Origin: a virus
Taxonomy: Duplodnaviria > Heunggongvirae > Uroviricota > Caudoviricetes
DNA length: 11,916 bases
Virus record (IMG/VR): IMGVR_UViG_2547132488_000014
Location: 1-11,916 of that record
Strand: one strand, 5' to 3'
In this document: one piece after another, positions 913 through 11,916 of the stretch
Layout of the letters: each line of letters opens with the position of its first letter
Numbering within the stretch: position 1 is the stretch's first letter
The notes under the pieces: generated by a model
The model's input: only the letters and a program-made list of their open reading frames with translations
Told to the model about the DNA's origin: nothing
Database searches by the model: none
Program-made: the position numbers and the translations under genes

Positions 913-1704
913 TTATGCTTCGATCGCCGTTTTGAGCCGTTGTGTTGCTACATCAAAATAATGATCACTGGTTTCTATACCAATAAATTTGCGTCCTGCT
1001 TTCAGCGCTGCAACACCCGTTGTTCCCGATCCCATAAAAGGATCAAGGACTGTTCCACCACTATTCGCAGTCCTGACCAGTTCTGCCATAAGTTCTTCTG
1101 GTTTTCCGGTCGGGTGCATTTTCTTTGATGGGATAACCGGGAACGTCATGCAGCCGTCGAACGGTCCCGAAGGCGATTTATCTAAATGGCCTTTACTGCC
1201 CCAGACGATGTATTCGCACTGATGCCGGAAATACCCCGTATGGGGTGTTCGTGACCCCCTTCCTTTGTTCCACGCAATGATGCCGCGCCATGTAAAGCCA
1301 CTGGCCTGAAACGCATCGGTTAAAGCTGGTAATTGTCGCCAGTCAGTAAATACCAGGGCATAACCGCCCGGCCTGACTGCGCGGTGTGCCTGTGCCATCC
1401 ATAATTGTGTCCAGTAAGCCCACGAACGGGCGTCCATGTTTTCACCCGCGAACCCATCAAAACGGTGAAGGCTCTCGCCGTTCAGATATTTTGCATGGCT
1501 GCCCTGGTTGGTGCGTCCGGCCTTGTGTGTCGCACCCGAACTGTAAGGCGGGTCAGTGATTAAGGCATCAATGCTTTCTGGCTCAATCAGCGGCAATATT
1601 TCCAGCGCATTCCCACGACAGAGCGTGGCATTGTCAGTCTGATAAACCTTAGTGTGTTCCGGTGTATGTGCTGGTTGGTGCTGGATTGCGATCCCCACGG
1701 TCAT
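913..1704 (-). CDS. DNA amino-methyltransferase, beta-class (N6-adenine or N4-cytosine), orphan: no cognate restriction gene in the window
   Basis: 263-aa ORF with motif IV DPPY (ITDPPYSS) N-terminal to motif I FxGxG (DPFMGSGTT), the circularly permuted order typical of beta-class N6A/N4C methyltransferases. ATG at 1702-1704. Confidence 0.88.
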   Translation of the reverse strand: MTVGIAIQHQPAHTPEHTKVYQTDNATLCRGNALEILPLIEPESIDALITDPPYSSGATHKAGRTNQGSHAKYLNGESLHRFDGFAGENMDARSWAYWTQLWMAQAHRAVRPGGYALVFTDWRQLPALTDAFQASGFTWRGIIAWNKGRGSRTPHTGYFRHQCEYIVWGSKGHLDKSPSGPFDGCMTFPVIPSKKMHPTGKPEELMAELVRTANSGGTVLDPFMGSGTTGVAALKAGRKFIGIETSDHYFDVATQRLKTAIEA

Positions 1705-1846
1705 AACTCCTCATGTGTGTGGGGTGCTCGATGGCTCTCGTTATCTGGTTAAGTGTTTTGCAGCGCGGACATTTTATTTCAATGTAGTGAAATGAGGCGC
1801 GGGCAAGTAGTTTGTTGCAATTTTTGCATCGTACATTTTGCGTCAT
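1649..1846 (-). CDS. com: Com-like zinc-finger protein (phage Mu Com family translational activator), overlapping the methyltransferase start
   Basis: Translation MTQNVRCKNCNKLLARASFHYIEIKCPRCKTLNQI... has a CxxC-N16-CxxC zinc ribbon closely resembling Mu Com as recalled (RCKNCNKLL...HIEI.CPRCK). ATG at 1844-1846 with AGAGG Shine-Dalgarno 8 nt upstream; an in-frame GTG at 1853-1855 is the alternative start. Stop at 1649-1651 is 55 nt inside the methyltransferase ORF, in a different frame. Confidence 0.7.
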   Translation of the reverse strand: MTQNVRCKNCNKLLARASFHYIEIKCPRCKTLNQITRAIEHPTHMRSYDRGDRNPAPTSTYTGTH

Positions 1847-1893
1847 TTGCGGCACCTCTTGTGTGGTTACTGCTGCCGATATGATAACAAATC

Positions 1894-2035: not shown

Positions 2036-2332
2036 TTAGCCATATTTGCGGGCAAAGTCTTCATCAGAGGTGCATAGATAGATAAAAAACTCAATAAATG
2101 CCACGATTGCCGGAATGAATGTCCAGCAAAAAATAAGGTAAAGGAATCCTTGCCCCACTTTACCTAAATAAAATTTGTGTGCACCAAGACCACCTAAAAA
2201 GAAAGCCAGTAGTGCGGCTGTCATTCTGCTTTTTGAACTTGCTGTTCTTTGAGGTGCTCCACAATTGGGGCAGGATGTGGCATCTTTATGTATTTCCTTG
2301 CCGCATCCGCGACAAAATACCATTTCACTCAT
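2036..2332 (-). CDS. Small membrane protein with N-terminal zinc ribbon and TM2 domain
   Basis: 98-aa ORF: CRGCGKEIHKDATSCPNCGAP (two CxxC) followed by two hydrophobic helices and a GGLGAHKFYLG motif typical of TM2-domain proteins. AAAGGAAC Shine-Dalgarno upstream of ATG at 2330-2332. Confidence 0.8.
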   Translation of the reverse strand: MSEMVFCRGCGKEIHKDATSCPNCGAPQRTASSKSRMTAALLAFFLGGLGAHKFYLGKVGQGFLYLIFCWTFIPAIVAFIEFFIYLCTSDEDFARKYG

Positions 2333-2467
2333 AAAGAGTTCCTTTCAAATTTAAATAAGCGTTAAGCCCACCACTCTTACTGGTGGGCCTCAATTTAAAT
2401 TTGGGTGCCACTTCGACCATACCTTGGCAACCGATTGACGGGGGATTGCTCCCCCGTCGCGGTTTCC

Positions 2468-2608
2468 TTACTGCTTACACTGTAAGAACGCCGCAAACTC
2501 CGCTCCCCAGAAGCTCATCCGTATTTCACACAGCGAACCGTGTAGCATCCAGATGATGAGGATTACCGTCACGCAGAACGTGATGGCCGTAAGCGATTTT
2601 TGCGACAT
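2468..2608 (-). CDS. hok: Hok/Gef-family type I toxin (small membrane-active killer peptide), 46 aa
   Basis: Manual translation MSQKSLTAITFCVTVILIIWMLHGSLCEIRMSFWGAEFAAFLQCKQ: short polar N-terminus, one transmembrane helix, SLCEIR identical to plasmid R1 Hok, and AAFLxCK tail as in HokA. AAGGAG Shine-Dalgarno about 7 nt upstream of ATG (2606-2608); TAA stop at 2468-2470. Below the length cut-off of the ORF track. Confidence 0.7.
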   Translation of the reverse strand: MSQKSLTAITFCVTVILIIWMLHGSLCEIRMSFWGAEFAAFLQCKQ

Positions 2609-2799
2609 AGCGCTTGCTCCTTTGTTGGAGAGGCGCTAACCTATCACTTGCTTAAGGTAGATATGTTAGGGCCTCGGTTAAACAAAAATGTTTTCCGGGG
2701 CCTTTCCACATCTGGCCTTCGGGTATTCCCTCCGACCATCAGCCGAAAGGCACCCGCGCGTAATCTATCGCTTTTTTGTTACTCCGGCAATTCTGCCTG

Positions 2800-3060
2800 T
2801 TAATTCTGAGGTAAAGGCAAACTCATCTGATTGTTTCCCCTGTGTGAAGCTGGCAGTTCATGCCACGGGATACCTTCTGAAGAGTGAACGCCGGAGGCAT
2901 GTTTCGATGTGAATTTATGGAAAGCTTCCAGTGTTGAGAAGCATACGCCGCATTCCAGATTGTTACACTGGTAATACTTTTGCCGCACGGTGTTTGAATC
3001 ATTTTCCGGACGACTGGTGCGGATACGGGCAGATGCGCCACAAAGCGGACAACGGAACAT
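2800..3060 (-). CDS. ogr: Ogr/Delta-family zinc-finger transcriptional activator of phage late genes
   Basis: Begins MFRCPLCGASARIRTSR...YYQCNNLECGVCF, matching the N-terminus and Cys spacing of P2 Ogr as recalled (MFHCPLC...). Immediately downstream of gpD, as in P2. Confidence 0.85.
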   Translation of the reverse strand: MFRCPLCGASARIRTSRPENDSNTVRQKYYQCNNLECGVCFSTLEAFHKFTSKHASGVHSSEGIPWHELPASHRGNNQMSLPLPQN

Positions 3061-3102: not shown

Positions 3103-4212
3103 TCACTCTGTTTCCGCTATCCATTCCGGGATTTTTGCCTCAAGCTCAAGCTGCGTGGTAAAGCCGCTGTTATCAATGGTGTGCTCGGCTTTTGCAATAA
3201 TCCAGTCCTGATTATCAATCTCGCTTTTAAATCCTGTTACCGTGCCATGCATTTCGGGGTAGAGTTCTGCACGTCCACGCGCCAGCGTGATGGAGAATGA
3301 TGCGGCTCCGCGTTGTAGCTGCTGCCACTTTGCCGCCGCTGCGCGTCTTGCTGCCTGCTCGTTCTGATAAGTCTTGCGTAACACAAACACATTGCCTTCC
3401 GCGCCTTCCATATAATCACCTTCACGGCTGCTGCTTTTCTCCTTTTTGGGCTTGGGCGGTTTGCGGCGTTTCACGCTGACTTTTTTCTTTTTCCCGTAAT
3501 TAAGATCAAGCCAGTAAGCGCGTACCCCCGTATACGCTTCGCGGTCAGCAATGCGGAACTGATGGCGATCGCCGCTGCTGCGTGTGATGGCAAACGATGG
3601 CAACGGCTGGCCCTGTGCGTTCACGCCGCCGCCGGGCATGATGAATAACAGATTACCGCTTTTTACCGTGGTGATTGCGCCCAGCATTTCCGCCATGCGC
3701 GTAAGGAAGGACATGTCGCTTTCTTCGGTCTGGTCGGCGTGGTCGATTTCGATATCCATCAGCATTTCGCTGATTTGCGGTTTCAGACCATACCGATGAG
3801 CGATGGCGGATACCACACGCTCAACGGTCACATCATGCCAGGACACCTCACGTTTAACGTTAAATTCATCCCGAAAATCTGCGCTTCTGGCTGAAACAGT
3901 CAGCCTGTCCGGCGGTCCTTCGTGAGCGATTTCATCAACAATGTAAGTGCCTTTTTCTGTCAGCGGTTCTCCCTTCCAGCCAATGAGAACCGTCAGGCGC
4001 GCGCCCCGTGGCGGTAGCTGCAACTGACCATCCGCATCATCCAGCATGATGGTGAGCTGGTCCGCCTCAAATCCCCGGTTGTCGGTCAGTGACAGGCTCA
4101 TCAGGCGCTCTGCCACGCCTGACAGCGTTTTACCCTCCGCGAGAATATCAAAATCCGGCATTTTCACGGGGTCTGTGCCCTGACTGAGCAATTGCATGGT
4201 GGTGTCGGTCAT
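3103..4212 (-). CDS. D: Tail protein gpD (P2 late control gene D family)
   Basis: Large ORF directly upstream of ogr on the same strand, about the size of P2 gpD. Start set at the internal ATG (4210-4212; MTDTTMQLL...), preceded by GGGAGGGAG. The ORF-track start at 4344 adds 44 residues with no ribosome-binding site. Confidence 0.85.
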   Translation of the reverse strand: MTDTTMQLLSQGTDPVKMPDFDILAEGKTLSGVAERLMSLSLTDNRGFEADQLTIMLDDADGQLQLPPRGARLTVLIGWKGEPLTEKGTYIVDEIAHEGPPDRLTVSARSADFRDEFNVKREVSWHDVTVERVVSAIAHRYGLKPQISEMLMDIEIDHADQTEESDMSFLTRMAEMLGAITTVKSGNLLFIMPGGGVNAQGQPLPSFAITRSSGDRHQFRIADREAYTGVRAYWLDLNYGKKKKVSVKRRKPPKPKKEKSSSREGDYMEGAEGNVFVLRKTYQNEQAARRAAAAKWQQLQRGAASFSITLARGRAELYPEMHGTVTGFKSEIDNQDWIIAKAEHTIDNSGFTTQLELEAKIPEWIAETE

Positions 4213-4369
4213 CTGCTCCCTCCCTGTGTGGCATGGTCGCATGTGCGTGCGGAGGGGGTTACTGCTTTTTGTTGTCGCCGTGGCGGGAGAATGGCGCAGG
4301 GGTGAGATTGCGCGCGTGGTGGGTGATGATTGTTGCCGAATCATTTAACGGATACAAGGGGCTGAAGCT

Positions 4370-5554
4370 ATGAGTGAAACTCGTTTTCATGGTGCCCGTG
4401 TTACGGAAAATACCGACCTGGTAACAGCGATTAACGATGTTGATTCCAGCGTTATCGGTATCGTGGCAACGGCGGATGATGCGGACGCGAAGCTGTTCCC
4501 GCTGAACAAGCCCACACTGCTGACCCGCGTCAATGACGTGCTGGGAAAATGCGGGACAACGGGGACGCTTTATCGTGCGCTTAAGGCCATCGCAGACCAG
4601 GTGAGCACAAAGGTGATCGTCGTTCGCGTGGCTGAACACAAAGAAGAAGACGGAAAAACGCAGGATCAACTGGTTATCGGTGGTTCTGAATCTGACGGCA
4701 GCTATACGGGGATGTATGCGCTGCTTGTTGCAGAGCAGGATGAAAGCATCGGATACCGTCCGCGTATTCTGGCCGCGCCGGAGCTGGACACGGAGGCGGT
4801 GACAAAATCCCTGTGCGTGATTGCGGGTAAACTGCGCGCGTTTGTGTATGCCTCATGTCACGGCTGTAACACGATGGCTGAGGCAATTACCTACCGCCAG
4901 AAATTCAACGAACGAGAGGTGATGCTCTTATGGCCGGACTTCATCGCCTACAACCCGAAAAGTGGCAAAAACGAAACGTTCCCCGCGCCTGCCTATGCGT
5001 GCGGCCTTCGTGCGTACATTGACCATGAACAGGGCTGGCACAAATCGCTGTCCAACGTTCCGGTTAAAAATGTGCTGGGGATGTCCGGGCATGTGTTCTG
5101 GTCGTTGCAGGCCGAAGACAGTGATGCCAACAGCCTCAACAACAAAGAAATCACGACCATTATTCGTCGCAACGGGTTCCGCTTCTGGGGCAACCGCACA
5201 CCGGAAACGAACGCCTACATCTTTGAGGTGTATACCCGAACCGCACAGGTGCTGGCTGATTCAATTGCGGAAGCGCAGTTTGAAACCATCGACAGTCCGC
5301 TGACGCCTGCGAACGTGAAGGATGTTATCAGCGCCATCAGGGCAAAACTGGATTCACTGGTGACTGCCGGGAAACTGATTGGGGCGTCGTGCTGGTATGA
5401 CGTGGTGGATAACGGCACCACGAATTTACGTCAGGGGCGCGTGCGTATTCGCTACAAATATACGCCAGTTCCCCCGCTGGAAGACATGGAGCTTTACCAG
5501 TCGTTTACTGATGAATTCTTTGGTCCCGCATTTGCGGTGCTGGGAGGTGCCTGA
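4370..5554 (+). CDS. FI: Contractile tail sheath protein (gpFI)
   Basis: 394 aa, first gene of a sheath-tube-chaperone-tape measure-gpU series; size and position as in the P2 FETUD operon. AAGGGG Shine-Dalgarno 9 nt upstream of the ATG. Confidence 0.88.
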   Translation: MSETRFHGARVTENTDLVTAINDVDSSVIGIVATADDADAKLFPLNKPTLLTRVNDVLGKCGTTGTLYRALKAIADQVSTKVIVVRVAEHKEEDGKTQDQLVIGGSESDGSYTGMYALLVAEQDESIGYRPRILAAPELDTEAVTKSLCVIAGKLRAFVYASCHGCNTMAEAITYRQKFNEREVMLLWPDFIAYNPKSGKNETFPAPAYACGLRAYIDHEQGWHKSLSNVPVKNVLGMSGHVFWSLQAEDSDANSLNNKEITTIIRRNGFRFWGNRTPETNAYIFEVYTRTAQVLADSIAEAQFETIDSPLTPANVKDVISAIRAKLDSLVTAGKLIGASCWYDVVDNGTTNLRQGRVRIRYKYTPVPPLEDMELYQSFTDEFFGPAFAVLGGA

Positions 5555-6066
5555 TGGCTGTACCAAAACATCTTCGCTTTTTTACGCTGTTTGTGGATGG
5601 TGAAAACGAAGTGGGTAAGGTGACGTCCGTCACCCTGCCTAAACTGACGCGCAAAACCGACAGCTACCGGGGTGGCGGCATGATGGGAGCGGTAAGTATT
5701 GATCTCGGCCTGGATGACTCCGCGCTTGATGCGAGCTTTGTCATGGGGGGCGCAGTTCGTGAGCTGTTCCTTAAGTATGGCGGCACGATTGACGGCACGC
5801 TGCTGCGTTTTGCGGGTGAATACTACACCGATGCAGAAAGCGACCTGTATGAAGTCGAAATGCGCGGACGTGTGACGGAAATTGATATGGGGGAAGCCAA
5901 ACAGGGCGAAGCCACATCACACACTTACGCCATTAAAAACACCTACTACAAGCTGAGTGTTAACGATCGCCCGTTGTGGGAGATTGACCTGCTGAACTTC
6001 ATCTACCGGAAGGACGGCAAGGACATTGTGCCTGACCGTATCCGTTCCGCGCTTGGGCTTGGCTGA
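5554..6066 (+). CDS. FII: Tail tube protein (gpFII)
   Basis: 170 aa directly after the sheath gene; its ATG overlaps the sheath stop (TGATG), indicating translational coupling; GGGAGGTG upstream. Confidence 0.85.
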   Translation: MAVPKHLRFFTLFVDGENEVGKVTSVTLPKLTRKTDSYRGGGMMGAVSIDLGLDDSALDASFVMGGAVRELFLKYGGTIDGTLLRFAGEYYTDAESDLYEVEMRGRVTEIDMGEAKQGEATSHTYAIKNTYYKLSVNDRPLWEIDLLNFIYRKDGKDIVPDRIRSALGLG

Positions 6067-6120
6067 TAAGTAATATGCAGGCGGCGCAGTGCGTCGCCTC
6101 TGACTGAAAGGAGTTTCCTG

Positions 6121-6486
6121 ATGAAAGAGACGAAAAACATCGATACCGAAAACACGGTAGTTACTGACACTGTGAAAGAAACCAGTGAGCGTGGCGTAAA
6201 ACTTACCCAACCCATTGAGCGAGGCGACGAAAAAATCACGTATGTGGAGATCACCGGGGCTATTGAGCAGGCTGGATCTCTGCGAGATTTGTCGCTGTCT
6301 GATGTGCTGAATCTGAAAGCGGAATCCATGTTTACGCTGCTGTCACGCGTGACATCACCGCGACTGGATGAAGTGACGATCAAAAAAATGGCATCCCGTG
6401 ACTTTATTCAGTTATGTGTGGTTGCCGTAAATTTTTTGAGCGGTGCGGACTCTGGCGGGAAGAACGAACAGGCGACGGAAGCCTGA
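6121..6486 (+). CDS. E: Tail assembly chaperone gpE (zero-frame product)
   Basis: 121-aa ORF between tube and tape measure genes; contains the slippery heptamer near its 3' end. Confidence 0.82.
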   Translation: MKETKNIDTENTVVTDTVKETSERGVKLTQPIERGDEKITYVEITGAIEQAGSLRDLSLSDVLNLKAESMFTLLSRVTSPRLDEVTIKKMASRDFIQLCVVAVNFLSGADSGGKNEQATEA

Positions 6487-6650
6487 TCACGGTTGTGTGC
6501 TTTGAGCACATAGAAGACTTTGTGGCAGATATTGCCGTTATTTTTAACTGGTCGCCCGCCGAAATCTTCATGATGACGCCCGGCGAAGTGGTTAGCTGGC
6601 GTGAGCGGGCGGCACTTCGCAGCGGGAGGGCAGACAATGAAGACTCTTGA
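6121..6650 (+). CDS. E': Tail assembly chaperone E+E', product of a programmed -1 ribosomal frameshift near 6432-6438
   Basis: The -1 frame ORF 6414-6650 overlaps the 3' end of E and ends at TGA 6648-6650, overlapping the tape measure start. The heptamer T TTT TTG sits in X XXY YYZ register in the E frame. Same architecture as P2 E/E'. Confidence 0.75.
6432..6438 (+). other. Slippery heptamer TTTTTTG (programmed -1 frameshift site for E/E')
   Basis: E-frame codons AAT TTT TTG place the heptamer in X XXY YYZ register; the -1 frame is open from this point to 6650. Confidence 0.75.
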
Positions 6651-9444
6651 TATCCGGGTCGCTTTCAGCGCCGTTGACAGGCTGACCCGGCCTGCCGAAA
6701 ACGCCCGCCGCCTGATGGGGCAGTTTGGTGACTCCATCCAGCGAACGCAGGGGGCGATCAAAAATCTCGAGCGTCAGGCGCGTTCATTTGAGCGCGCCCG
6801 CGACGCTGTCAGTAAAGCGGATGCGGGCATCGTGAAAGCACGACGCCAGCTTAACGCCCTTAATCAGTTACAACGCACGGGTACAGTGCTCAGCGAAAAA
6901 CAACAAAAGCTGATGCAGCAGTTAAGCACCCGGCTTGAACGCCTGAATGAATCGCGCACACGGGAAATTCAGAAAATGCGGGAACTTGGCGGAGAGCTGA
7001 AACGCCACGGCATTTCCCTGACAGGCAGCGATAACACCATCCAGCAGGCCATCAGACGCACCGAACAGTACAACAACCAGCTTGAACGCGAACGGCAGGC
7101 GCTTGCGCGTGTAACGCGGGCGCGTGAGCGGTATTCGCGCGCGCAGGAAACCGCGGGAAAACTGAAAACAGGTGGTGCGCTGGCAATTGGTGCGGCAGCG
7201 GCTGGCGGCTATGCTACCGGGCGTTTTTTGCAGCCTGCGATCGGGTTCGGGAAAGAGATGTCCCGCGTTCAGGCACTGACGCGAATCGACCAGAACAGCC
7301 CGCAGTTTAAGGCGCTGCGTGAGCAGGCGTTAAAACTTGGCTCTGAAACGCAGTTCACCGCAGGCGATGCCGCCAGTGGACAGGCATTTCTTGCAATGGC
7401 TGGCTTCACTCCACAGGCCATTCAGGCTGCGCTTCCCGGCGTGCTGAGCATGGCAACGGCTGGCGGTATGGATCTCGGCGAGACGGCAGATATTGGCTCA
7501 AATATCCTGACGCAGTTCGGCCTTTCTGCTGACCAGATGGACCGGGTCGGTGACACACTCACCGCAGCGTTTACCCGTACCAACACTGACCTTCGCGCAC
7601 TGGGCGAAACCATGAAATATGCAGGTCCGGTGGCGGGTAAGCTGGGAATATCGCTGGAGCAGGCCGCAGCGATGGCTGGCGTGCTGGCGAATATGGGCAT
7701 CAGAGGGAGTGATGCCGGGACGGCAATGCGTGCCAGCCTGGCTCGTCTGGCATCACCGCCAAAGGCGGCGGCAGAGGCGCTGAAAGAGCTTGGTGTGGCA
7801 GTTTCTGACGCGAACGGCAAAATGCGCCCGATGGAGGATGTGCTGGCCGACCTTTATAAAGCCACCCGCAAATACGGGGAAGTTGACCGGGTATCCTTCT
7901 TTAAGGACATCGCCGGGGAAGAGGCTTTCACATCGTTTATGGCGCTCGTTGATGCGGCAGGTGACGGTTCCTTACCCAAACTGAGAAAAGAACTTGAAGG
8001 CGCACGCGGTGAGGCTGAACGCACGGCAAAGGTTATGGCCAACAACCTTGATGGCGATCTGAAATCACTCGGCAGTGCATGGGAAGGGTTGCGCATCCGC
8101 ATTGCAGATCTGATTGACGGCCCGCTGCGTTCTGTCACGCAGTGGCTCACGCGGGTGGTATCAAGGGTGACGGCGCTGGCGCAGGCCCATCCGGCACTGA
8201 CGCGCCAGTTACTGATAGCAGGCGGTGCGTTGCTGGCAATGACTGCAACGATTGGCTCGTTGTCGCTGGTTATTGGCGTGCTTCACGGGAAACTGGCCAC
8301 GTTACGTCTTGGTTTTTCTCTCCTGACCGGATCAATGAATGTCGTCAGGGTGCTGCCAGCACTATGGGGAATGGTAACAGGTTCCATCTCGTTGCTGGGT
8401 GGCGCTATCGGGGCGCTGTTCAGTCCGGTCGGATTGATTGTTGCCGCGTTTGTGGCTGCGGCGGTTCTCATCTGGAAATACTGGGAACCCATCAAGGCGT
8501 TTTATGCCGGGGTGTTCAGTGGGATTATGGAACGGCTGGCTCCGTTGCGCGAAACCTTTGAACGGTTTGGTCCTGTTTTTGATGTCGTGCGCGATGGGAT
8601 TATTCAGCTCTTTAACTGGTTTAAATCGCTGCTGTCACCGATGGAGTCCAGCAAGGAAACGCTGGATAAATGTACCAGTGCTGGCGAGATATTCGGTAAC
8701 GTTCTTGGTGGCGCGCTACAGCTTGTTCTGACGCCTGCAAAAATGCTGCTGGATACGCTGGCGTGGATACTTGAAAAACTCGGTGTGCTTCCGGATGAAG
8801 CGGAAAGGGCGAGAAAGAAAATCGAAGACGCACAGCGTGCGGCCATTCTTCAGGACAAGGTTGCCTTGCTTCAGGGGGACCTGGCGAAAATCAATCCGCC
8901 GAAGCCTGTGGAAAATGGCAATGGCACCGGAGGTGATAAACCCAAAGACAATAAACCGCTCACAGACAGCAACACCGGAACGCTACGCAGGCTCAGCAAA
9001 ATTGCTGATAACACAGGTAAGCTGGTTGATGAGACGAAAAAACGCATTGGCCCCGGCGATATTGTCTTTAAGAACCTGCCCCGCGCACTTGCTGTTCGTG
9101 GGGAGTGGCAGGAGCGGAAGATTGCGCAGGTCAGTAAGCCTGCCCCCGCAATTAATATCCCCCCCGTGGTCCCGGCTCCGCTGCCTCCGGCGCTGGTCCC
9201 TGTTGTTGCGGCCAGCTCCCGCCCGGTGGCGGAGGCCATACGATCGCCAGTGGCATCAGTTCCTGTAACTTCCCGTAACCGGGAGCCTGTTGCCTCCGGA
9301 TTTGGTGGTGAAATTCATGTTCATCTGCATAACGTTGTTACGCAGAATCCCCGCGAACTGGCGAAACTGGTCGGTGAAATGGTCAGGGCAGAAATGGAAC
9401 GGCGCGCCCGTGCCGGGCGTGGCAGTTTTTACGATAAAGATTGA
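6637..9444 (+). CDS. T: Tail tape measure protein (gpT)
   Basis: Largest ORF in the window. N-terminal coiled-coil-like region, central Gly/Ala-rich hydrophobic segments, Pro/Ala-rich C-terminal region. Start set at ATG 6637 (MKTLDIRV...), preceded by GGGAGGG, rather than the GTG at 6601. Confidence 0.9.
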   Translation: MKTLDIRVAFSAVDRLTRPAENARRLMGQFGDSIQRTQGAIKNLERQARSFERARDAVSKADAGIVKARRQLNALNQLQRTGTVLSEKQQKLMQQLSTRLERLNESRTREIQKMRELGGELKRHGISLTGSDNTIQQAIRRTEQYNNQLERERQALARVTRARERYSRAQETAGKLKTGGALAIGAAAAGGYATGRFLQPAIGFGKEMSRVQALTRIDQNSPQFKALREQALKLGSETQFTAGDAASGQAFLAMAGFTPQAIQAALPGVLSMATAGGMDLGETADIGSNILTQFGLSADQMDRVGDTLTAAFTRTNTDLRALGETMKYAGPVAGKLGISLEQAAAMAGVLANMGIRGSDAGTAMRASLARLASPPKAAAEALKELGVAVSDANGKMRPMEDVLADLYKATRKYGEVDRVSFFKDIAGEEAFTSFMALVDAAGDGSLPKLRKELEGARGEAERTAKVMANNLDGDLKSLGSAWEGLRIRIADLIDGPLRSVTQWLTRVVSRVTALAQAHPALTRQLLIAGGALLAMTATIGSLSLVIGVLHGKLATLRLGFSLLTGSMNVVRVLPALWGMVTGSISLLGGAIGALFSPVGLIVAAFVAAAVLIWKYWEPIKAFYAGVFSGIMERLAPLRETFERFGPVFDVVRDGIIQLFNWFKSLLSPMESSKETLDKCTSAGEIFGNVLGGALQLVLTPAKMLLDTLAWILEKLGVLPDEAERARKKIEDAQRAAILQDKVALLQGDLAKINPPKPVENGNGTGGDKPKDNKPLTDSNTGTLRRLSKIADNTGKLVDETKKRIGPGDIVFKNLPRALAVRGEWQERKIAQVSKPAPAINIPPVVPAPLPPALVPVVAASSRPVAEAIRSPVASVPVTSRNREPVASGFGGEIHVHLHNVVTQNPRELAKLVGEMVRAEMERRARAGRGSFYDKD

Positions 9445-9450
9445 GGAGTC

Positions 9451-9945
9451 ATGGCCATGATGATGATCTACGGCATGTTTGTTTTTGAGCTGCGCACGTT
9501 GCCGCATCAGCAGTTACAGCAAAACAAAAGCTGGCGGCATGTGAAAAATGAACGCGTTAACCGTTCAGCAAGCTGGCAGTATATCGGGGCAGGCGATGAT
9601 CGCATCGTTCTTTCTGGTGTGCTTTATCCTGAAATTACAGGTGGCGAAGTGTCGCTTTCGTTGCTGACCACACAGGCATATACAGGACGCCCCTGGCCTC
9701 TGATTGATGGTGTCGGGCAGATTTACGGCATGTATGTCCTGACCGGAACGAATACGACCCATTCCGAGTTTGATCGCTACGGTAAGGCGAAAAAGATAGA
9801 ATTTTCACTGACCCTTGAACGCTGTGATGAGGATTTGCGGGGGCGCCTGCAATCCTCATCGTTCAGCGATATGCTGTCCGGCTTCAAAGATAAGGTGACA
9901 GCATCCATTAACAACGCGGCCAGTTCAGTTAAAGGGCTGTTCTGA
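9451..9945 (+). CDS. U: Tail protein gpU
   Basis: 164-aa ORF directly after the tape measure gene, GAGGAG upstream. Start is ambiguous among ATGs at 9451, 9457, 9460 and 9463 (MAMMMIYGMFVFELRT...). Confidence 0.78.
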   Translation: MAMMMIYGMFVFELRTLPHQQLQQNKSWRHVKNERVNRSASWQYIGAGDDRIVLSGVLYPEITGGEVSLSLLTTQAYTGRPWPLIDGVGQIYGMYVLTGTNTTHSEFDRYGKAKKIEFSLTLERCDEDLRGRLQSSSFSDMLSGFKDKVTASINNAASSVKGLF

Positions 9946-9946
9946 T

Positions 9947-10159
9947 TTGGAAGAGCAGAGGCAGCAGGCGGAAAATGAAAAGCAAAGCCTGCTACAGCTC
10001 GTCAGGGATAAAACCCAGCTATGGGACTCACAGCTACGGCTGGGCATCATTTCCGACGAGAATAAACAAAAATTAACCGAGTGGATGCTCTATGCGCAGA
10101 AGGTCGAATCCACAGACACCTCCAGCCTGCCAGTAACGTTTCCAGAACAACCAGAATGA
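9947..10159 (+). pseudogene. Truncated tail fiber assembly protein (Tfa) C-terminal fragment, no ATG start
   Basis: The 70-residue reading frame (..QQAENEKQSLLQLVRDKTQLWDSQLRLGIISDENKQKLTEWMLYAQKVESTDTSSLPVTFPEQPE) aligns with the C-terminus of the intact Tfa on the other strand (..[63 protein letters not shown]). Frame is open only from 9899, has no ATG (first candidate is TTG at 9947, 1 nt after the gpU stop), and lacks the N-terminal two thirds. Confidence 0.6.
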
Positions 10160-10162
10160 AAC

Positions 10163-10189
10163 AAGGCCCGCTATCGGGCCTTAATTTTT
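10163..10189. terminator. Bidirectional Rho-independent terminator between the convergent Tfa fragment and Tfa
   Basis: Perfect 8-bp stem AAGGCCCG / CGGGCCTT with loop CTAT, followed on the + strand by AATTTTTATT. Lies 3 nt after the + strand stop and 5 nt after the Tfa stop on the - strand. Confidence 0.7.
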
Positions 10190-10715
10190 ATTCAGGCTTT
10201 TGTGGCCATTCAGGATTTGCCGTATCCACACGGCTGACCAGAACGCTGTAGCGTTCCCATGCTTCCAGTCGTGTGCGTTCCTCGTCTGTTGCCATATTCA
10301 GCCTGACAGCGCGTTCCAGCGGCTGGATGACTGATTCAGCTTCGGAAATCAACGCGGCCTTTTGTGATTCGGCCTGTTGTTGCTGTTCGTCAGCCGTATA
10401 AATCCGCTTAATCACAGCACCATCCTTAAACATCCATTTACCTGAGTCATCAGCACGTCGGTTGGCGGTAATATCAGGAACCTCGACAACGCTAAAACCT
10501 TCAGGGTTAAGCGTGGAGGCATCTTTGGTGATGGCGACAATAATATTATTTTCGTCGTATACAATCTTTATGGTGTCGTCCTGAAAGTTATTTACTTCCT
10601 CATACCAGTTTTTACCGTCTTCTGTATATAACCAGATAACATCAAAATTCTTTGTTAGCTGACATTGCTCTTTTGTTTTTGGATTTCCTGACTTAATATT
10701 TTTTAAATGCTGCAT
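10188..10715 (-). CDS. G: Tail fiber assembly protein (Tfa; P2 gpG / Mu U family)
   Basis: 175 aa with the conserved Tfa C-terminus (...[27 protein letters not shown]). ATG 3 nt after the tail fiber stop (TAA ATT ATG), AGGTG upstream. Confidence 0.88.
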
Positions 10716-10718
10716 AAT

Positions 10719-11916
10719 TTACACCTGTGCGACGTTATACCATGTGCCATTGATGTATTTTTGTATTGGTCTGAAGATGGCTTCATCATCGCCATCTACT
10801 TCACCAATGATTCTTAATCCGGTAATTGCGTGTCCGGCTTTTTCATAACGACCACCACGCGCCATCAATTGAACAACACGCGTACCCAGGCGAACATCTT
10901 TCACATAACGGGAATCAAAGTTACCGTAATCCGAGGGGTTAACACGCCCTGTAATATTTATGGTTTTATTACTTTGAATGCTGCCGGAGACAAAGCGCAT
11001 AACATGGACGTTATTAGCATAAACGTCCAGATTACCGTCGCCATTTTGTTTAAAGCCCGTGTCATTATCACCCAAAACAATCGAGTTACCGCCAAGAGCA
11101 CTGGATGTTCCGATACCCAGTGCACCATTCAATTGACCACCAGATAATGACAACGCCCCAACATCAGCAGCAGTCGGTTTTATGTGCGAACTGTAAATTA
11201 CATATACAGTCCCATCTGTCAGGCCTGTCGGTTTATTCGCTGTATAAGTTGGTGATGTATGAATTTGTACAGTGGCATCCTTTGTATAATCCCACTGGAT
11301 ATTAACACCCGTGGCGTAATTACCTATTTCTACATAAATGTCATAGGTATCACCGGATGTATTCACCCATGCAAAATTAGTAAATCCAACCGAGGTCCGT
11401 CGCCATAATGCACCAGTAATACCCTTTGGATTTCCATTTCCGGCACGCAGAACCAGCTCAGAGATGCCTGCTTGCTGCGGGGAGCCAACGTTATACCCTG
11501 CACCACCAATCAGACTTATGTAAACCACGGAACTGGCTTGTGGCATTGTTACAGTTGCCAGTTTGAACCATCCAGCACCACCACTAAAAGACATGGTTGT
11601 TGAATTTGTTGTGCCGATATTACGCAGGAATAGTTTTTTATCGGGAATATCTGCGCCGTTCTGGTTTTTCTGTAATGCGCCAGAAGCCTGATTTACCGTT
11701 TCCTGTAAACCGAGGTATTCGATAACGGCGGCAACGGTCGATTTCGCAAGAATATCCCGCCCTACTTTTGTCAGAGTTGCCAGGCTGGCGACATCATTCC
11801 CCGTAAAATACGGAAACCTGTCTGCCGCAGTAGCAAGCCCGGCCAGCGCCGTCAGGGTGGCATCTTTCGGTTGCTTACCCGCAAGCGCGTTAGTCATGGT
11901 GGTCGCAAAATTCGGG
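10719..11916 (-). CDS. H: Tail fiber protein (P2 gpH-like), C-terminal part; 5' end lies beyond the right window edge
   Basis: Frame is open to the window edge with no stop upstream of the listed Met at 11897, so the gene is 5'-truncated by the window. Contains the tail-fiber junction motif ...LTALAGLATAADRFPYFTGNDVASLATLTKVGRDILAKSTVAAVIEYLGLQET... followed by a Gly/Ser/Thr/Asn-rich distal region. Directly upstream of Tfa. Confidence 0.85.
   Translation of the reverse strand, partial: PNFATTMTNALAGKQPKDATLTALAGLATAADRFPYFTGNDVASLATLTKVGRDILAKSTVAAVIEYLGLQETVNQASGALQKNQNGADIPDKKLFLRNIGTTNSTTMSFSGGAGWFKLATVTMPQASSVVYISLIGGAGYNVGSPQQAGISELVLRAGNGNPKGITGALWRRTSVGFTNFAWVNTSGDTYDIYVEIGNYATGVNIQWDYTKDATVQIHTSPTYTANKPTGLTDGTVYVIYSSHIKPTAADVGALSLSGGQLNGALGIGTSSALGGNSIVLGDNDTGFKQNGDGNLDVYANNVHVMRFVSGSIQSNKTINITGRVNPSDYGNFDSRYVKDVRLGTRVVQLMARGGRYEKAGHAITGLRIIGEVDGDDEAIFRPIQKYINGTWYNVAQV
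11700..11725. other. gix/cix/pix-like 26-bp sequence (candidate Gin/Pin-family DNA invertase crossover site) inside the tail fiber gene
   Basis: TTCCTGTAAACC GA GGTATTCGATAA compared with the Mu gix site as recalled (TTCCTGTAAACC GA GGTTTTGGATAA): 24 of 26 identical. Encodes the IEYLGLQE junction of the fiber protein. Confidence 0.45.

Follow-up and report, generated by a model that had tools for sequence, protein, structure and literature searches.

The DNA analysed here, an 11,916-nt stretch of viral sequence referred to below as the window, very probably carries an intact hok/sok-type type I toxin-antitoxin locus of about 390 bp, which is located on the minus strand (2790..2403) as cargo downstream of the ogr gene. 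The host element is a P2-like (Xuanwuvirus P88-like) prophage, with the cassette at its attR-proximal end, and the cassette is ordinary except that the Mok leader peptide is missing in its subfamily. It is quite possible, if somewhat short of probable, that the 46-aa HokA-like cassettes of cluster 72 represent a naturally mok-less hok/sok branch, where the switch described for plasmid R1 has been rewired onto the hok ribosome-binding site and Sok re-closes this site via the dcb element. A mok-less subfamily that keeps all other regulatory elements of R1, backed by covariation, would provide a natural test of hok control without leader-peptide coupling.

The toxin gene and its prophage setting

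The hok ORF runs along the minus strand from the ATG at 2608 to the TAA stop at 2470-2468 (2608..2468; 46 codons plus TAA) and encodes a 46-aa peptide, MSQKSLTAITFCVTVILIIWMLHGSLCEIRMSFWGAEFAAFLQCKQ. The peptide has a short polar N-terminus (MSQKS), a single hydrophobic stretch LTAITFCVTVILIIWML, in which the uninterrupted hydrophobic run was read as residues 6-22, the SLCEIR motif at residues 25-30 and AAFLQCK at residues 39-45. On inspection, it fits the usual Hok layout, in which about 45-55 aa make up a single transmembrane helix near the N-terminus and a polar tail at the C-terminus. A Shine-Dalgarno sequence, AAGGAG (2617..2622 on the minus strand, read as 2622-2617), is found 8 nt 5′ of the ATG, and its GGAG is kept across the family. 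An earlier sequence-only reading of this DNA had listed these hallmarks (polar N-terminus, one hydrophobic stretch, SLCEIR, an AAFLxCK-like tail and AAGGAG) without giving the strand, and all of them are present.

The profile search suggested in that reading gave a significant match of the peptide to Pfam PF01848 HOK_GEF (30.1 bits, with the gathering score set at 22; E 3.7e-7; residues 7-44), and PHROG 251 matched it over the full length (82.8 bits; E 2.5e-23). The residues M1, C12, T14, L26, C27, E28 and E37 are all found in the peptide with a spacing identical to that of the logo positions M1, C16, T18, L30, C31, E32 and E41, which over 80% of Hok peptides share (10.1101/2025.08.07.668861). 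These seven residues were invariant or nearly so in an alignment of 25 sequences, and C44 is the equivalent of logo position 48.

The comparison with hok loci of related prophages, likewise suggested earlier, was made on 32 diverged copies taken from contigs encoding divergent Hok peptides; an alignment-based search of the genome collection gave 7 loci only, and the viral contigs gave 80 near-identical copies of little use for covariation. The hok ORF was intact in all 32 copies, down to 61% amino-acid identity, and its variability was highest at the third codon position and lowest at the second (entropy 0.56, 0.34 and 0.19 for the third, first and second positions, respectively), which indicates a coding-type substitution pattern. 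The matches to PF01848 and PHROG 251, along with the intact ORFs and their codon-biased variability, place the Hok features far beyond chance, and we take the ORF 2608..2468, as predicted, to be a genuine Hok/Gef-family toxin gene.

The ogr gene (3060..2800; PF04606) lies directly upstream on the same strand, and the proposal that a Hok/Gef toxin gene occupies the cargo region downstream of ogr is borne out by PF01848, PHROG 251 and the P2-like prophage context. The earlier description of the gene as unannotated holds for that reader's own ORF track only and fails for the public records: RefSeq annotates WP_000078920.1 on identical DNA under the label “Hok/Gef family protein”, and phage P88 carries the gene as gp52, annotated and adjoining ogr as in RefSeq. 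The exact Hok peptide is entry 1628, cluster 72, in the supplementary FASTA of Escalera-Maurer et al., and the tested homologs in their Table S2 include 72_1621, which differs from the window Hok only at V16A, as well as the Stx-phage copy 72_1589 (10.1101/2025.08.07.668861). The text of this preprint names three other sequences as the sole non-toxic ones, by which the one-residue variant would rank as toxic, and its Hok catalogue comes without an analysis of Mok, Sok or mRNA structure (10.1101/2025.08.07.668861). No difference at the protein level was found between the window gene and cluster 72, WP_000078920.1 or P88 gp52. What is on record already covers the gene and its family, its occurrence in P2-like and Stx prophages, the catalogued peptide and toxicity testing of the peptide cluster; in this respect our finding changes little, and the novelty implied by the earlier reading was not confirmed.

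The cassette is widespread, with 1331 of 5426 complete E. coli genomes matching at least 80% of a 461-nt query. It has moved as a unit between P2-like, lambdoid/Stx and plasmid contexts, and its boundaries are precise: the homology to copies in other contexts begins at about 2776/2783 and ends at 2403. One copy (L095) is truly decayed, having its 5′ end replaced, and looks unlike the window copy.

The role of the cassette is likely prophage addiction and/or abortive infection or release. In E. coli and Salmonella, it may also influence how stably a P2-like prophage is retained together with its cargo. The identity of the locus would be the same if its main role belonged to the lytic cycle or superinfection, as a lysis/release helper or an abortive-infection trigger, rather than to prophage addiction; we regard this as conceivable but are inclined to doubt it. 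The hokW-sokW locus of prophage Sp5 has been reported to aid phage release (PMC8621323), and PMC8621323 cites its reference 27 for an involvement of R1 hok/sok in defence against phages. The neighbours of the cassette also look like cargo, comprising a TM2 protein and a Com-controlled DNA methyltransferase, together with an ATP-dependent nuclease in the identical RefSeq locus; against such a role, no PADLOC model matched the Hok peptide. PADLOC also gave no match for the TM2 protein or Com. The phage-defence work on R1 hok/sok reportedly concerned the exclusion of T4.

The hok mRNA and the Sok antisense RNA

A hok promoter is predicted by inspection on the minus strand at 2762..2790 (−35 TTGCCG, 2790-2785; 17-nt spacer; −10 TAGATT, 2767-2762), and its −35 element begins 10 nt past the ogr stop codon. 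The −10 element (TAGATT/TAGAAT/TAAATT) is kept 6 nt before an invariant GGGTGCC in nearly all compared copies, and the −35 element varies with context. Since the consensus promoter scan reported neither this promoter (8 of 12 consensus positions at a threshold of 9) nor the Sok promoter described below, which also fell under the threshold, both promoter calls rest on conservation.

If transcription begins at the putative +1 G (2755) and runs as far as the end of fbi (2403), the full-length hok mRNA would have 353 nt (2403..2755, minus strand). Its predicted fold has a minimum free energy of −159.5 kcal/mol (z = −7.6 vs. shuffles), with the 5′ and 3′ ends paired: the tac element at the 5′ end, GGGUGCCUUUCGGCU (2741..2755), forms a 15-pair helix in the minimum-energy fold with the fbi element, GGUCGAAGUGGCACCC (2403..2418), where the conserved cassette stops. 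In the 32 copies, 92.9% of the alignment cells of this helix were paired and 4 pairs showed compensatory change; tac columns 10-13 covaried with fbi (UA>CG, CG>GC and GC>AU, 12 sequences each), and the fbi variants GGCGCCC, GGCACUC and GGCAUCC retained pairing via G.U. In the 3′-trimmed, “open” mRNA, the predicted alternative partner of tac is a ucb-equivalent in the GGAAAGGCCCC region (2697..2706), and this helix belongs to the consensus structure of the Rfam sok model RF01794. It was paired in 98.7% of cells with 2 compensatory pairs, and tac columns 10-11 covaried with both partners, i.e., with fbi in 12 sequences and with ucb in 11. When the partners were slid as a control, only 27-56% of cells were paired vs. 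90-93% with the real partners, and the covariation score was reached by none of 500 shuffles. For the truncated RNA, the tac-ucb stem is already the fold of lowest energy in 20 of the 32 copies; in the window copy it comes at a cost of 0.9 kcal/mol.

The open mRNA is also predicted to form the Sok-target hairpin (GAGGC...GCCUC; 2630..2675), which is a consensus hairpin of RF01794. Its 5′ arm contains the conserved GAGG that serves as the mok Shine-Dalgarno sequence in R1, and its 3′ arm, equivalent to dcb, overlaps the Sok −10 element. The pairing was kept in 85% of cells with 3 compensatory pairs, and one arm changes from AUAUC/GAUAG in E. coli to CUUCUA/UAGAAG in the Salmonella copies. The loop contains CUUA (2656-2653), and a YUNR tetramer, the U-turn motif, was found in every inspected copy, which in a 14-nt loop amounts to chance-level information. 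In the predicted fold of the full-length mRNA, a 3′ element (2420..2435) masks this loop by long-range pairing with 2659-2643 (84.7% of cells paired, 6 pairs with compensatory change), and a closed hairpin (2608..2638; UAGCGC/GCGCUA plus CUCC/GGAG) covers the hok ribosome-binding site, with 92.9% of cells paired in the 32 copies.

Just 3′ of the hok stop codon, the fold contains a stable stem-loop (2429..2464) presumed to be the stop point for 3′ exonucleolytic trimming; pairing across its alignment columns (301-337) is kept by compensatory changes, among them GC>CG (9 sequences) and GC>AU (5 sequences), and in R1 it is the equivalent stem-loop that shields the truncated hok mRNA (PMC9841398). 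Further downstream, outside the conserved cassette, a context-specific hairpin 3′ of fbi (2364..2390) was recognized by eye as a possible terminator; it is common only to same-context copies such as L019, and the terminator scan reported no minus-strand terminator, the T-run of this hairpin being too weak. The earlier suggestion that the locus may be decayed does not agree with these data: the window has both tac helices (tac/fbi and tac/ucb) as well as the Sok-target hairpin and the 3′ stem-loop, and their pairing is kept by compensatory changes among the 32 copies.

RF01794 matched the leader at 2755..2598 with an E-value of 2.9e-8 and 47.6 bits, below the gathering score of 59, as was the case for every copy scanned; the model lies in the hok sense orientation, which we checked on the annotated hokW/sokW locus of phage 933W. 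On the plus strand, a Sok promoter is predicted at 2614..2642 (−35 TTGCTC, 2614-2619; 17-nt spacer; −10 TAACCT, 2637-2642), with the −35 element sitting opposite the hok Shine-Dalgarno sequence. This promoter is kept in all copies (−10 TAACCT/TATCCT, −35 TTGCTC/TTTACT, the spacer always being 17 nt), and its relative position is that of the annotated sokW in 933W. The predicted Sok RNA extends from about 2650 to about 2710 on the plus strand (approximately 55-63 nt, with estimated ends). A 19-nt tail, GCUUAAGGUAGAUAUGUUA, is left single-stranded at its 5′ end, and behind this tail come a GC-rich hairpin (2668-2704) and a short stretch rich in U; the fold energy of the RNA is −28 kcal/mol (z = −5.0). 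Among 28 distinct sequences, the terminator hairpin was kept with compensatory pairs, and the 5′ tail was hypervariable. The invariant U.G and G.U pairs of this hairpin exist on the antisense strand only and are mismatches on the sense strand.

Taking the RF01794 match, the conserved plus-strand promoter and the conserved terminator hairpin as its marks, we predict a plus-strand Sok antisense gene complementary to the hok leader at the place where the sequence-only reading had seen no clear Sok-like gene. For the Sok of this abundant 46-aa subfamily, no entry was found among the RefSeq features at the one identical locus examined, and the scanned copies all scored below the Rfam gathering score.

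Control of hok translation without mok

Upstream of hok, no start codon, including CTG, ATT, ATC and ATA, was found in the window in any frame open across the hok ATG, as the earlier reading had also noticed when it looked for an overlapping mok-like frame; the same scan, as a positive control, recovered mokW in phage 933W. Nor was there a conserved start among the 32 copies, where the candidates scatter over nt 3, 17, 19, 45, 100, 106 and 113 and 21 copies have none. An in-frame extension of the MokW/MokC type was considered and rejected: 27 nt upstream, the hok frame meets a stop, TAG, which belongs to the Sok −10 element. Two candidates for a mok substitute, the GUG-AUA-GGU-UAG mini-ORF (2647..2636) and a 31-codon ORF starting from the ATG at mRNA nt 17 (ATG17; 2739..2644), were rejected as not conserved. 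By all appearances, mok is missing throughout the 46-aa Hok subfamily, and a literature search over freely accessible papers found no relevant work on a mok-less hok. The lack of a mok leader ORF in the subfamily implies that the control of hok translation must be direct and not translationally coupled.

In the mechanism that we propose, Sok acts on the hok ribosome-binding site itself via an RNA switch, backed by RNase III decay. A weak promoter would give rise to a stable hok mRNA of 353 nt with its 5′ tac paired to the 3′ fbi, and in this closed form the 3′ element would mask the Sok-target loop while the local hairpin would lock the hok ribosome-binding site. Slow 3′ trimming back to the stem-loop behind the stop codon would strip off fbi, tac would then switch to ucb, and the Sok-target hairpin would form. 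This open form would loosen the hok ribosome-binding site, because the dcb arm of the target hairpin is also the arm that closes the ribosome-binding-site hairpin. As long as the short-lived Sok is supplied from its conserved promoter on the opposite strand, it would bind the target via its 19-nt tail and free dcb, so that the hok ribosome-binding site closes again; the duplex with Sok would also be committed to RNase III cleavage, by analogy with R1. Once the supply of Sok stops, which could happen because the prophage is lost or because an infecting phage shuts off transcription, the trimmed hok mRNA would be translated, and the 46-aa Hok would insert into the inner membrane, with the cell being killed or arrested. 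The closed/open switch, 3′ trimming and RNase III decay have been described for R1 (PMC9841398).

To open the hok ribosome-binding site, the modelling predicts a median cost over the 32 copies of 13.0 kcal/mol in the full-length form, 9.9 kcal/mol in the open form and 14.3 kcal/mol in the Sok-bound form, and in 28 of the 32 copies the Sok-bound form was 2 kcal/mol or more above the open form. The open form itself still costs about 10 kcal/mol, and the unpaired probability of its Shine-Dalgarno sequence is only about 0.1, falling to approximately 0 in the full-length and Sok-bound states. The modelling backs a direct switch in direction only, not in magnitude. A simpler scheme, where 3′ trimming merely exposes the hok Shine-Dalgarno sequence, is unsupported, as the unpaired probabilities leave this sequence mostly paired in all states. 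The comparison of opening energies was the only one to show the direction expected of a switch.

In R1, hok translation strictly requires the translation of mok (PMC9841398), from which it follows that a mok-less cassette could translate poorly or rely on a non-conserved upstream ORF. The latter would amount to canonical hok/mok/sok control, in which a non-conserved or non-canonical leader ORF unwinds the ribosome-binding-site hairpin and Sok blocks the leader ORF; the candidates here are the 31-codon ORF and the mini-ORF mentioned above. We consider this unlikely. It is true that R1 mok needs to be translated only as far as the hok Shine-Dalgarno sequence (PMC9841398), that the frame opened in the window by ATG17 stops at nt 110-112, about 22 nt before that sequence, and that in 4 of the 32 copies (L022, L043, L074 and L085) ATG17 opens a 71-codon mok-like frame overlapping hok. 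However, a leader-ORF start is never conserved, given the scattered candidates and the 21 copies with none; ATG17 has no Shine-Dalgarno sequence and is missing from the Salmonella and Klebsiella copies, and these cassettes have AUA or CGU where R1 has its mok AUG. The mok Shine-Dalgarno equivalent, GAGG (2675-2672), is invariant, but the Sok terminator stem also explains its conservation.

That the cassette is a translationally silent relic, a neutral cargo whose RNA elements persist and whose toxin, without mok, is effectively never made, would fit the paired Shine-Dalgarno sequence predicted in every state, the inactivity of the chromosomal hok loci of E. coli K-12 (PMC1635323) and the splitting of K-12 hokA by IS150, but it is highly improbable in view of the 32 intact ORFs with their third-position-biased substitutions, the compensatory changes that keep both RNA conformations, the diversification of the Sok 5′ tail with the hairpin kept (the pattern expected if cross-talk matters), the mobility of the cassette as a precise unit across P2-like, lambdoid/Stx and plasmid contexts, and the different look of the truly decayed copy.

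Relation to known systems

The cassette bears close resemblance to hok/mok/sok (parB) of plasmid R1 in its Hok-family peptide with the SLCEIR core, in the predicted stable mRNA closed by tac/fbi end-pairing with an alternative tac/ucb stem after 3′ trimming, in the Sok-target hairpin (GAGGC...GCCUC), where dcb, as the 3′ arm, overlaps the promoter of Sok, and in Sok as a short antisense RNA encoded in cis, its 5′ tail single-stranded and its terminator a hairpin, as well as in the protective 3′ stem-loop. It differs from R1 in its shorter Hok of 46 aa, the R1 Hok being longer, in its mRNA of 353 nt vs. 398 nt, in a leader scoring below the Rfam gathering score, and in being carried by a prophage and not by a plasmid. 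It also differs in having no mok: the R1 mok comprises 70 codons, and its start codon (nt 116-118) precedes that of hok by 58 nt (PMC9841398), whereas the window mRNA has no start there and all three of its frames are closed at nt 102-120.

The tisB/istR-1 system can be compared with the window cassette only in the way it works, as the two are unrelated in sequence. There, the toxin mRNA is structured and processed and has no coupled leader ORF, and its translation is controlled by an antisense RNA that binds well upstream of the Shine-Dalgarno sequence of the toxin; this RNA, IstR-1, is encoded in trans and acts by blocking a standby site for ribosomes.

Among the NCBIfam models, the best match of the peptide was HokA NF007290 (E 6.1e-9), and its identity as HokA was rejected, since the score of 35.8 bits is far under the equivalog cut-off of 89. 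The peptide shares with HokA of the E. coli K-12 hokA/mokA/sokA locus the MxQK N-terminus, SLCEL/IR and AAFLxCK; unlike the window Hok, K-12 HokA is 50 aa long and has an annotated in-frame mokA.

The hokW/mokW/sokW locus of the Stx2 phage 933W / Sakai prophage 5 is likewise a prophage-borne cassette with the same overall leader architecture; RF01794 matches both leaders, and PHROG 251, “MokW-like host killing”, covers both peptides. In contrast to the window Hok, the 933W HokW has 51 aa, resembles HokC/Gef and is extended in frame by the 19 codons of MokW, and the hokW leader scores 113.5 bits, above the gathering score, and occupies a different place in the phage. Phage 933W also has an unannotated copy of the 46-aa type, which is located downstream of lom.

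The hok gene downstream of ogr and its known relatives

The 46-codon ORF on the minus strand (ATG at 2608, TAA at 2470-2468; peptide read from the sequence as MSQKSLTAITFCVTVILIIWMLHGSLCEIRMSFWGAEFAAFLQCKQ), preceded by an AAGGAG Shine-Dalgarno (SD) sequence at 2622-2617, 8 nt 5′ of the ATG, had been proposed to be an unannotated hok/gef toxin gene. The profile searches bear this out: the 46-aa peptide significantly matched Pfam HOK_GEF (30.1 bits, E 3.7e-7; gathering score 22) and, over its whole length, PHROG 251 'MokW-like host killing' (82.8 bits, E 2.5e-23), and all seven positions conserved in >80% of Hok peptides are present with the correct spacing. The nearest named subfamily is the NCBIfam HokA model, yet the score (35.8 bits) lies far under its cut-off of 89. 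The profile matches thus indicate that the assignment to Hok/Gef is correct. The proposed placement as cargo downstream of ogr is correct as well, since gpD (4344..3103, PF05954) and, directly adjacent, Ogr (3060..2800, PF04606) lie upstream of hok on the same minus strand and the remainder of the window consists of P2-type tail genes.

The hok gene itself is already known. When 5426 complete E. coli genomes were compared with a 461-nt query around it, 1545 gave a match, 1331 of them across 80% or more of the query, with up to seven matching places in one genome. In two chromosomes the query matched throughout at 100% identity; there, RefSeq labels the gene 'Hok/Gef family protein' and its neighbour 'ogr/Delta-like zinc finger family protein'. 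The copy in phage P88 (Peduoviridae, Xuanwuvirus; 98.2% identity) is annotated 'MokW-like host killing / hok/gef family protein', many Stx2 phages carry an 83%-identical copy 3′ of lom, and plasmids hold further cassette copies. The protein search revealed a compact 46-aa family in E. coli, Shigella, Salmonella and Klebsiella, with a lowest identity of 61%. Among the 32,532 hok loci catalogued in the preprint 10.1101/2025.08.07.668861, which puts the enrichment of hok in prophages at about four-fold, the exact peptide of the window is entry 1628; its cluster mates 72_1589 and 72_1621, the latter differing from the window peptide by V16A, are among the toxicity-tested homologs (Table S2), and only three of the 45 tested, all differently named from these two, were non-toxic.

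The mRNA switch and the Sok antisense gene

Rfam RF01794 ('sok') matched 2755..2598 on the hok strand with 47.6 bits (E 2.9e-8), under the gathering score of 59. In the 933W control the match fell on the hokW strand, with the annotated sokW on the other strand; the model therefore represents the sense strand of the hok leader, to which the sok gene is complementary. Diverged copies were reduced to 34 at <97% identity, two were left out (one with Ns, one with a replaced 5′ end), and the remaining 32 full-length cassettes were aligned. The conserved block begins at a −10-like TAGATT/TAGAAT, 6 nt 5′ of an invariant GGGTGCC, and stops exactly past GGCACCC at 2403. Copies from Stx phages and plasmids have identical homology boundaries, and the mobile unit therefore spans approximately 2790..2403.

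The predicted full-length mRNA of 353 nt (2755-2403) folds with −159.5 kcal/mol (z = −7.6); tac, the first 15 nt (2755..2741), is paired with fbi, the last 16 (2418..2403), which corresponds to the tac/fbi 'fold-back' of plasmid R1 hok mRNA (PMC9841398). Columns 10-13 of tac co-change with fbi (UA>CG, CG>GC, GC>AU) in 12 of the 32 sequences, and three single variants in fbi still pair via G.U; columns 10-11 also covary, in 11 sequences, with mRNA nt 50-51 in the second partner of tac, the ucb-equivalent (2706..2697). Across the 32 copies, 90-93% pairing is found for both forms: the closed one, which combines tac/fbi with a hairpin at the hok ribosome-binding site and with a 3′ element that masks the Sok-target loop, and the open one, made up of tac/ucb and a GAGGC...GCCUC target hairpin and matching the Rfam consensus. 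The covariation score was reached by none of 500 shuffles, and sliding the partners by 1-3 columns lowered the pairing to 27-56%, so that the covariation evidence for both RNA forms is strong. Without fbi, 20/32 copies have tac/ucb pairing in their minimum-energy structure, and in the window copy this fold lies at most 0.9 kcal/mol above the minimum. A stable stem-loop just 3′ of the stop codon (2464-2429), with compensatory changes, is the counterpart of the R1 element that halts 3′ trimming (PMC9841398).

The sequence-only reading saw no clear Sok-like gene and considered the locus perhaps decayed. Neither suggestion holds: pairing in the switch is kept by covariation, and the plus strand carries a conserved antisense hairpin and a predicted promoter conserved in all copies (−35 TTGCTC at 2614-2619, 17-nt spacer, −10 TAACCT at 2637-2642). 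The −10 alternates solely between TAACCT and TATCCT, and the −35, which faces the hok SD, between TTGCTC and TTTACT; as in R1, the −10 lies within dcb, the 3′ arm of the Sok-target hairpin (PMC9841398). The predicted Sok RNA (−28 kcal/mol, z = −5.0) would start near G2650 and has a 5′ tail of 19 unstructured nt in addition to its GC-rich hairpin (2668-2704). In 28 distinct sequences this hairpin is kept by compensatory pairs and by invariant U.G and G.U pairs; on the hok strand, the latter would turn into A.C mismatches, which argues that selection here acts on the antisense RNA. The 5′ tail is hypervariable, the pattern expected of a specificity determinant where several cassettes share a cell. 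At the locus of identical DNA, RefSeq does not annotate Sok, probably because the scores of this subfamily against the Rfam model are only 30-57 bits.

A decayed cassette is exemplified by a Salmonella locus past tail-fibre genes (L095, about 1300-1710), where the hok ORF is intact and unrelated sequence replaces the promoter and tac.

Absence of mok and translational control

The absence of an overlapping mok frame, noted before for the window, stands and extends to the whole subfamily. No upstream start codon, even with CTG, ATT, ATC and ATA allowed, was found in any of the three frames that run open across the hok ATG in the window, and all three leader frames are closed by stops at mRNA nt 102-120. 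An in-frame TAG 27 nt 5′ of the ATG complements the Sok −10 and is conserved for that reason. Just 3′ of the Sok start, UAA, UGA, UAG and UAG are packed in 19 nt (2636-2654, minus strand), covering all three frames; as judged from these stops, a ribosome reading the leader would halt 14-30 nt before the hok SD. Of the 32 copies, 21 lack a candidate mok start, and in the remainder the starts occupy seven scattered positions; the same scan recovered the annotated mokW ATG of 933W, 57 nt 5′ of hokW, a spacing that matches R1 (mok AUG nt 116-118, hok AUG nt 174-176; PMC9841398). GAGG, the mok SD in R1, is invariant in the subfamily (2675-2672), with AUA or CGU after it in place of the R1 AUG. With no start in the window and none conserved in the family, the lack of mok is a subfamily trait rather than damage to this copy. 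While the gene is already on record and its overall interest is thus low, this natural mok-less hok/sok branch retaining the full R1-type RNA switch is the one point of moderate interest.

From the structure of the switch and of the Sok gene we infer how Sok might control translation. A single stretch (mRNA nt 118-126; 2638-2630) serves both as 3′ arm of the Sok-target hairpin and as 5′ arm of a hairpin at 2638-2608 in which the hok SD and AUG are sequestered; these two hairpins are mutually exclusive. Across the 32 copies, opening the 20-nt hok ribosome-binding site has a computed median cost of 13.0 kcal/mol for the full-length RNA, 9.9 for the open truncated form and 14.3 with the Sok-complementary stretch blocked, the last exceeding the open form by at least 2 kcal/mol in 28 copies. 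In the proposed scheme, 3′ trimming would loosen the site for synthesis of the putative killer peptide, and Sok binding would release dcb and re-close it, with presumed RNase III cleavage and decay as a second layer. The computed costs fit such a direct switch, their support being directional only. In the open form the SD is still predicted to be largely paired, and a non-conserved upstream ORF may serve as a surrogate mok.

Possible role, further cassettes and neighbouring genes

Distinct Salmonella P2-like prophages also carry diverged copies directly after ogr, near host genes, and in lambdoid-type phage regions other copies have tail-fibre or lom genes close by; as far as gene order can tell, this position would suit an addiction module penalising element loss. 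A role in phage release has a precedent in hokW-sokW, and phage exclusion has one in R1 hok/sok (PMC8621323). The Hok peptide had no hit in PADLOC.

Phage 933W contains a second 46-aa-type hok cassette between lom and ST933Wp67 (L004:5512-5866; NC_000924 about 45511-45865), which its RefSeq record leaves unannotated, hokW/mokW/sokW elsewhere being the only annotated set. Two Salmonella loci (L092:1354-2201, L093:1355-2201) hold two diverged cassettes in tandem, about 490 nt apart, with differing Sok 5′ tails. Contigs labelled Planococcaceae MAG (L005), Vagococcus sp. (L006) and Xanthomonas pisi (L009) bear E. coli-type cassettes (peptide identity 100%, 100% and 74%), probably through assembly contamination. 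Just past another Salmonella cassette (L098:1795-1992, minus strand), a strong Rfam match (171.6 bits) to the enterobacterial sRNA STnc540 adjoins an HU/IHF-family (PF00216) gene, presumably host sequence at the prophage boundary.

In the window, a ATTTAAATT direct repeat flanks a hairpin (2390-2364) between the cassette end and the next gene (2351-2402, minus strand) and may mark the scar of an insertion or the arrival of a small hairpin element. The product of that gene (2332..2036, minus strand) is 98 aa long, combines an N-terminal zinc ribbon with a TM2 domain, matches PHROGs of unknown function and had no hit in PADLOC. Beyond it, the ORF of a Com zinc ribbon (1855..1649, PF10122) shares 56 nt with the N6/N4 DNA methyltransferase gene that begins inside it (1704..913), both on the minus strand. 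The arrangement (913-1855) looks like Mu com/mom, but here Com is paired with a methyltransferase of the ordinary type II-like or orphan kind. In the region 3103-11897, sheath, tube, E, tape measure and U form a plus-strand tail block (4370-9945) opposite to gpD/ogr and the tail-fibre genes (all minus), which differs from the P2 gene order; the RefSeq locus of identical DNA has the same inverted arrangement.
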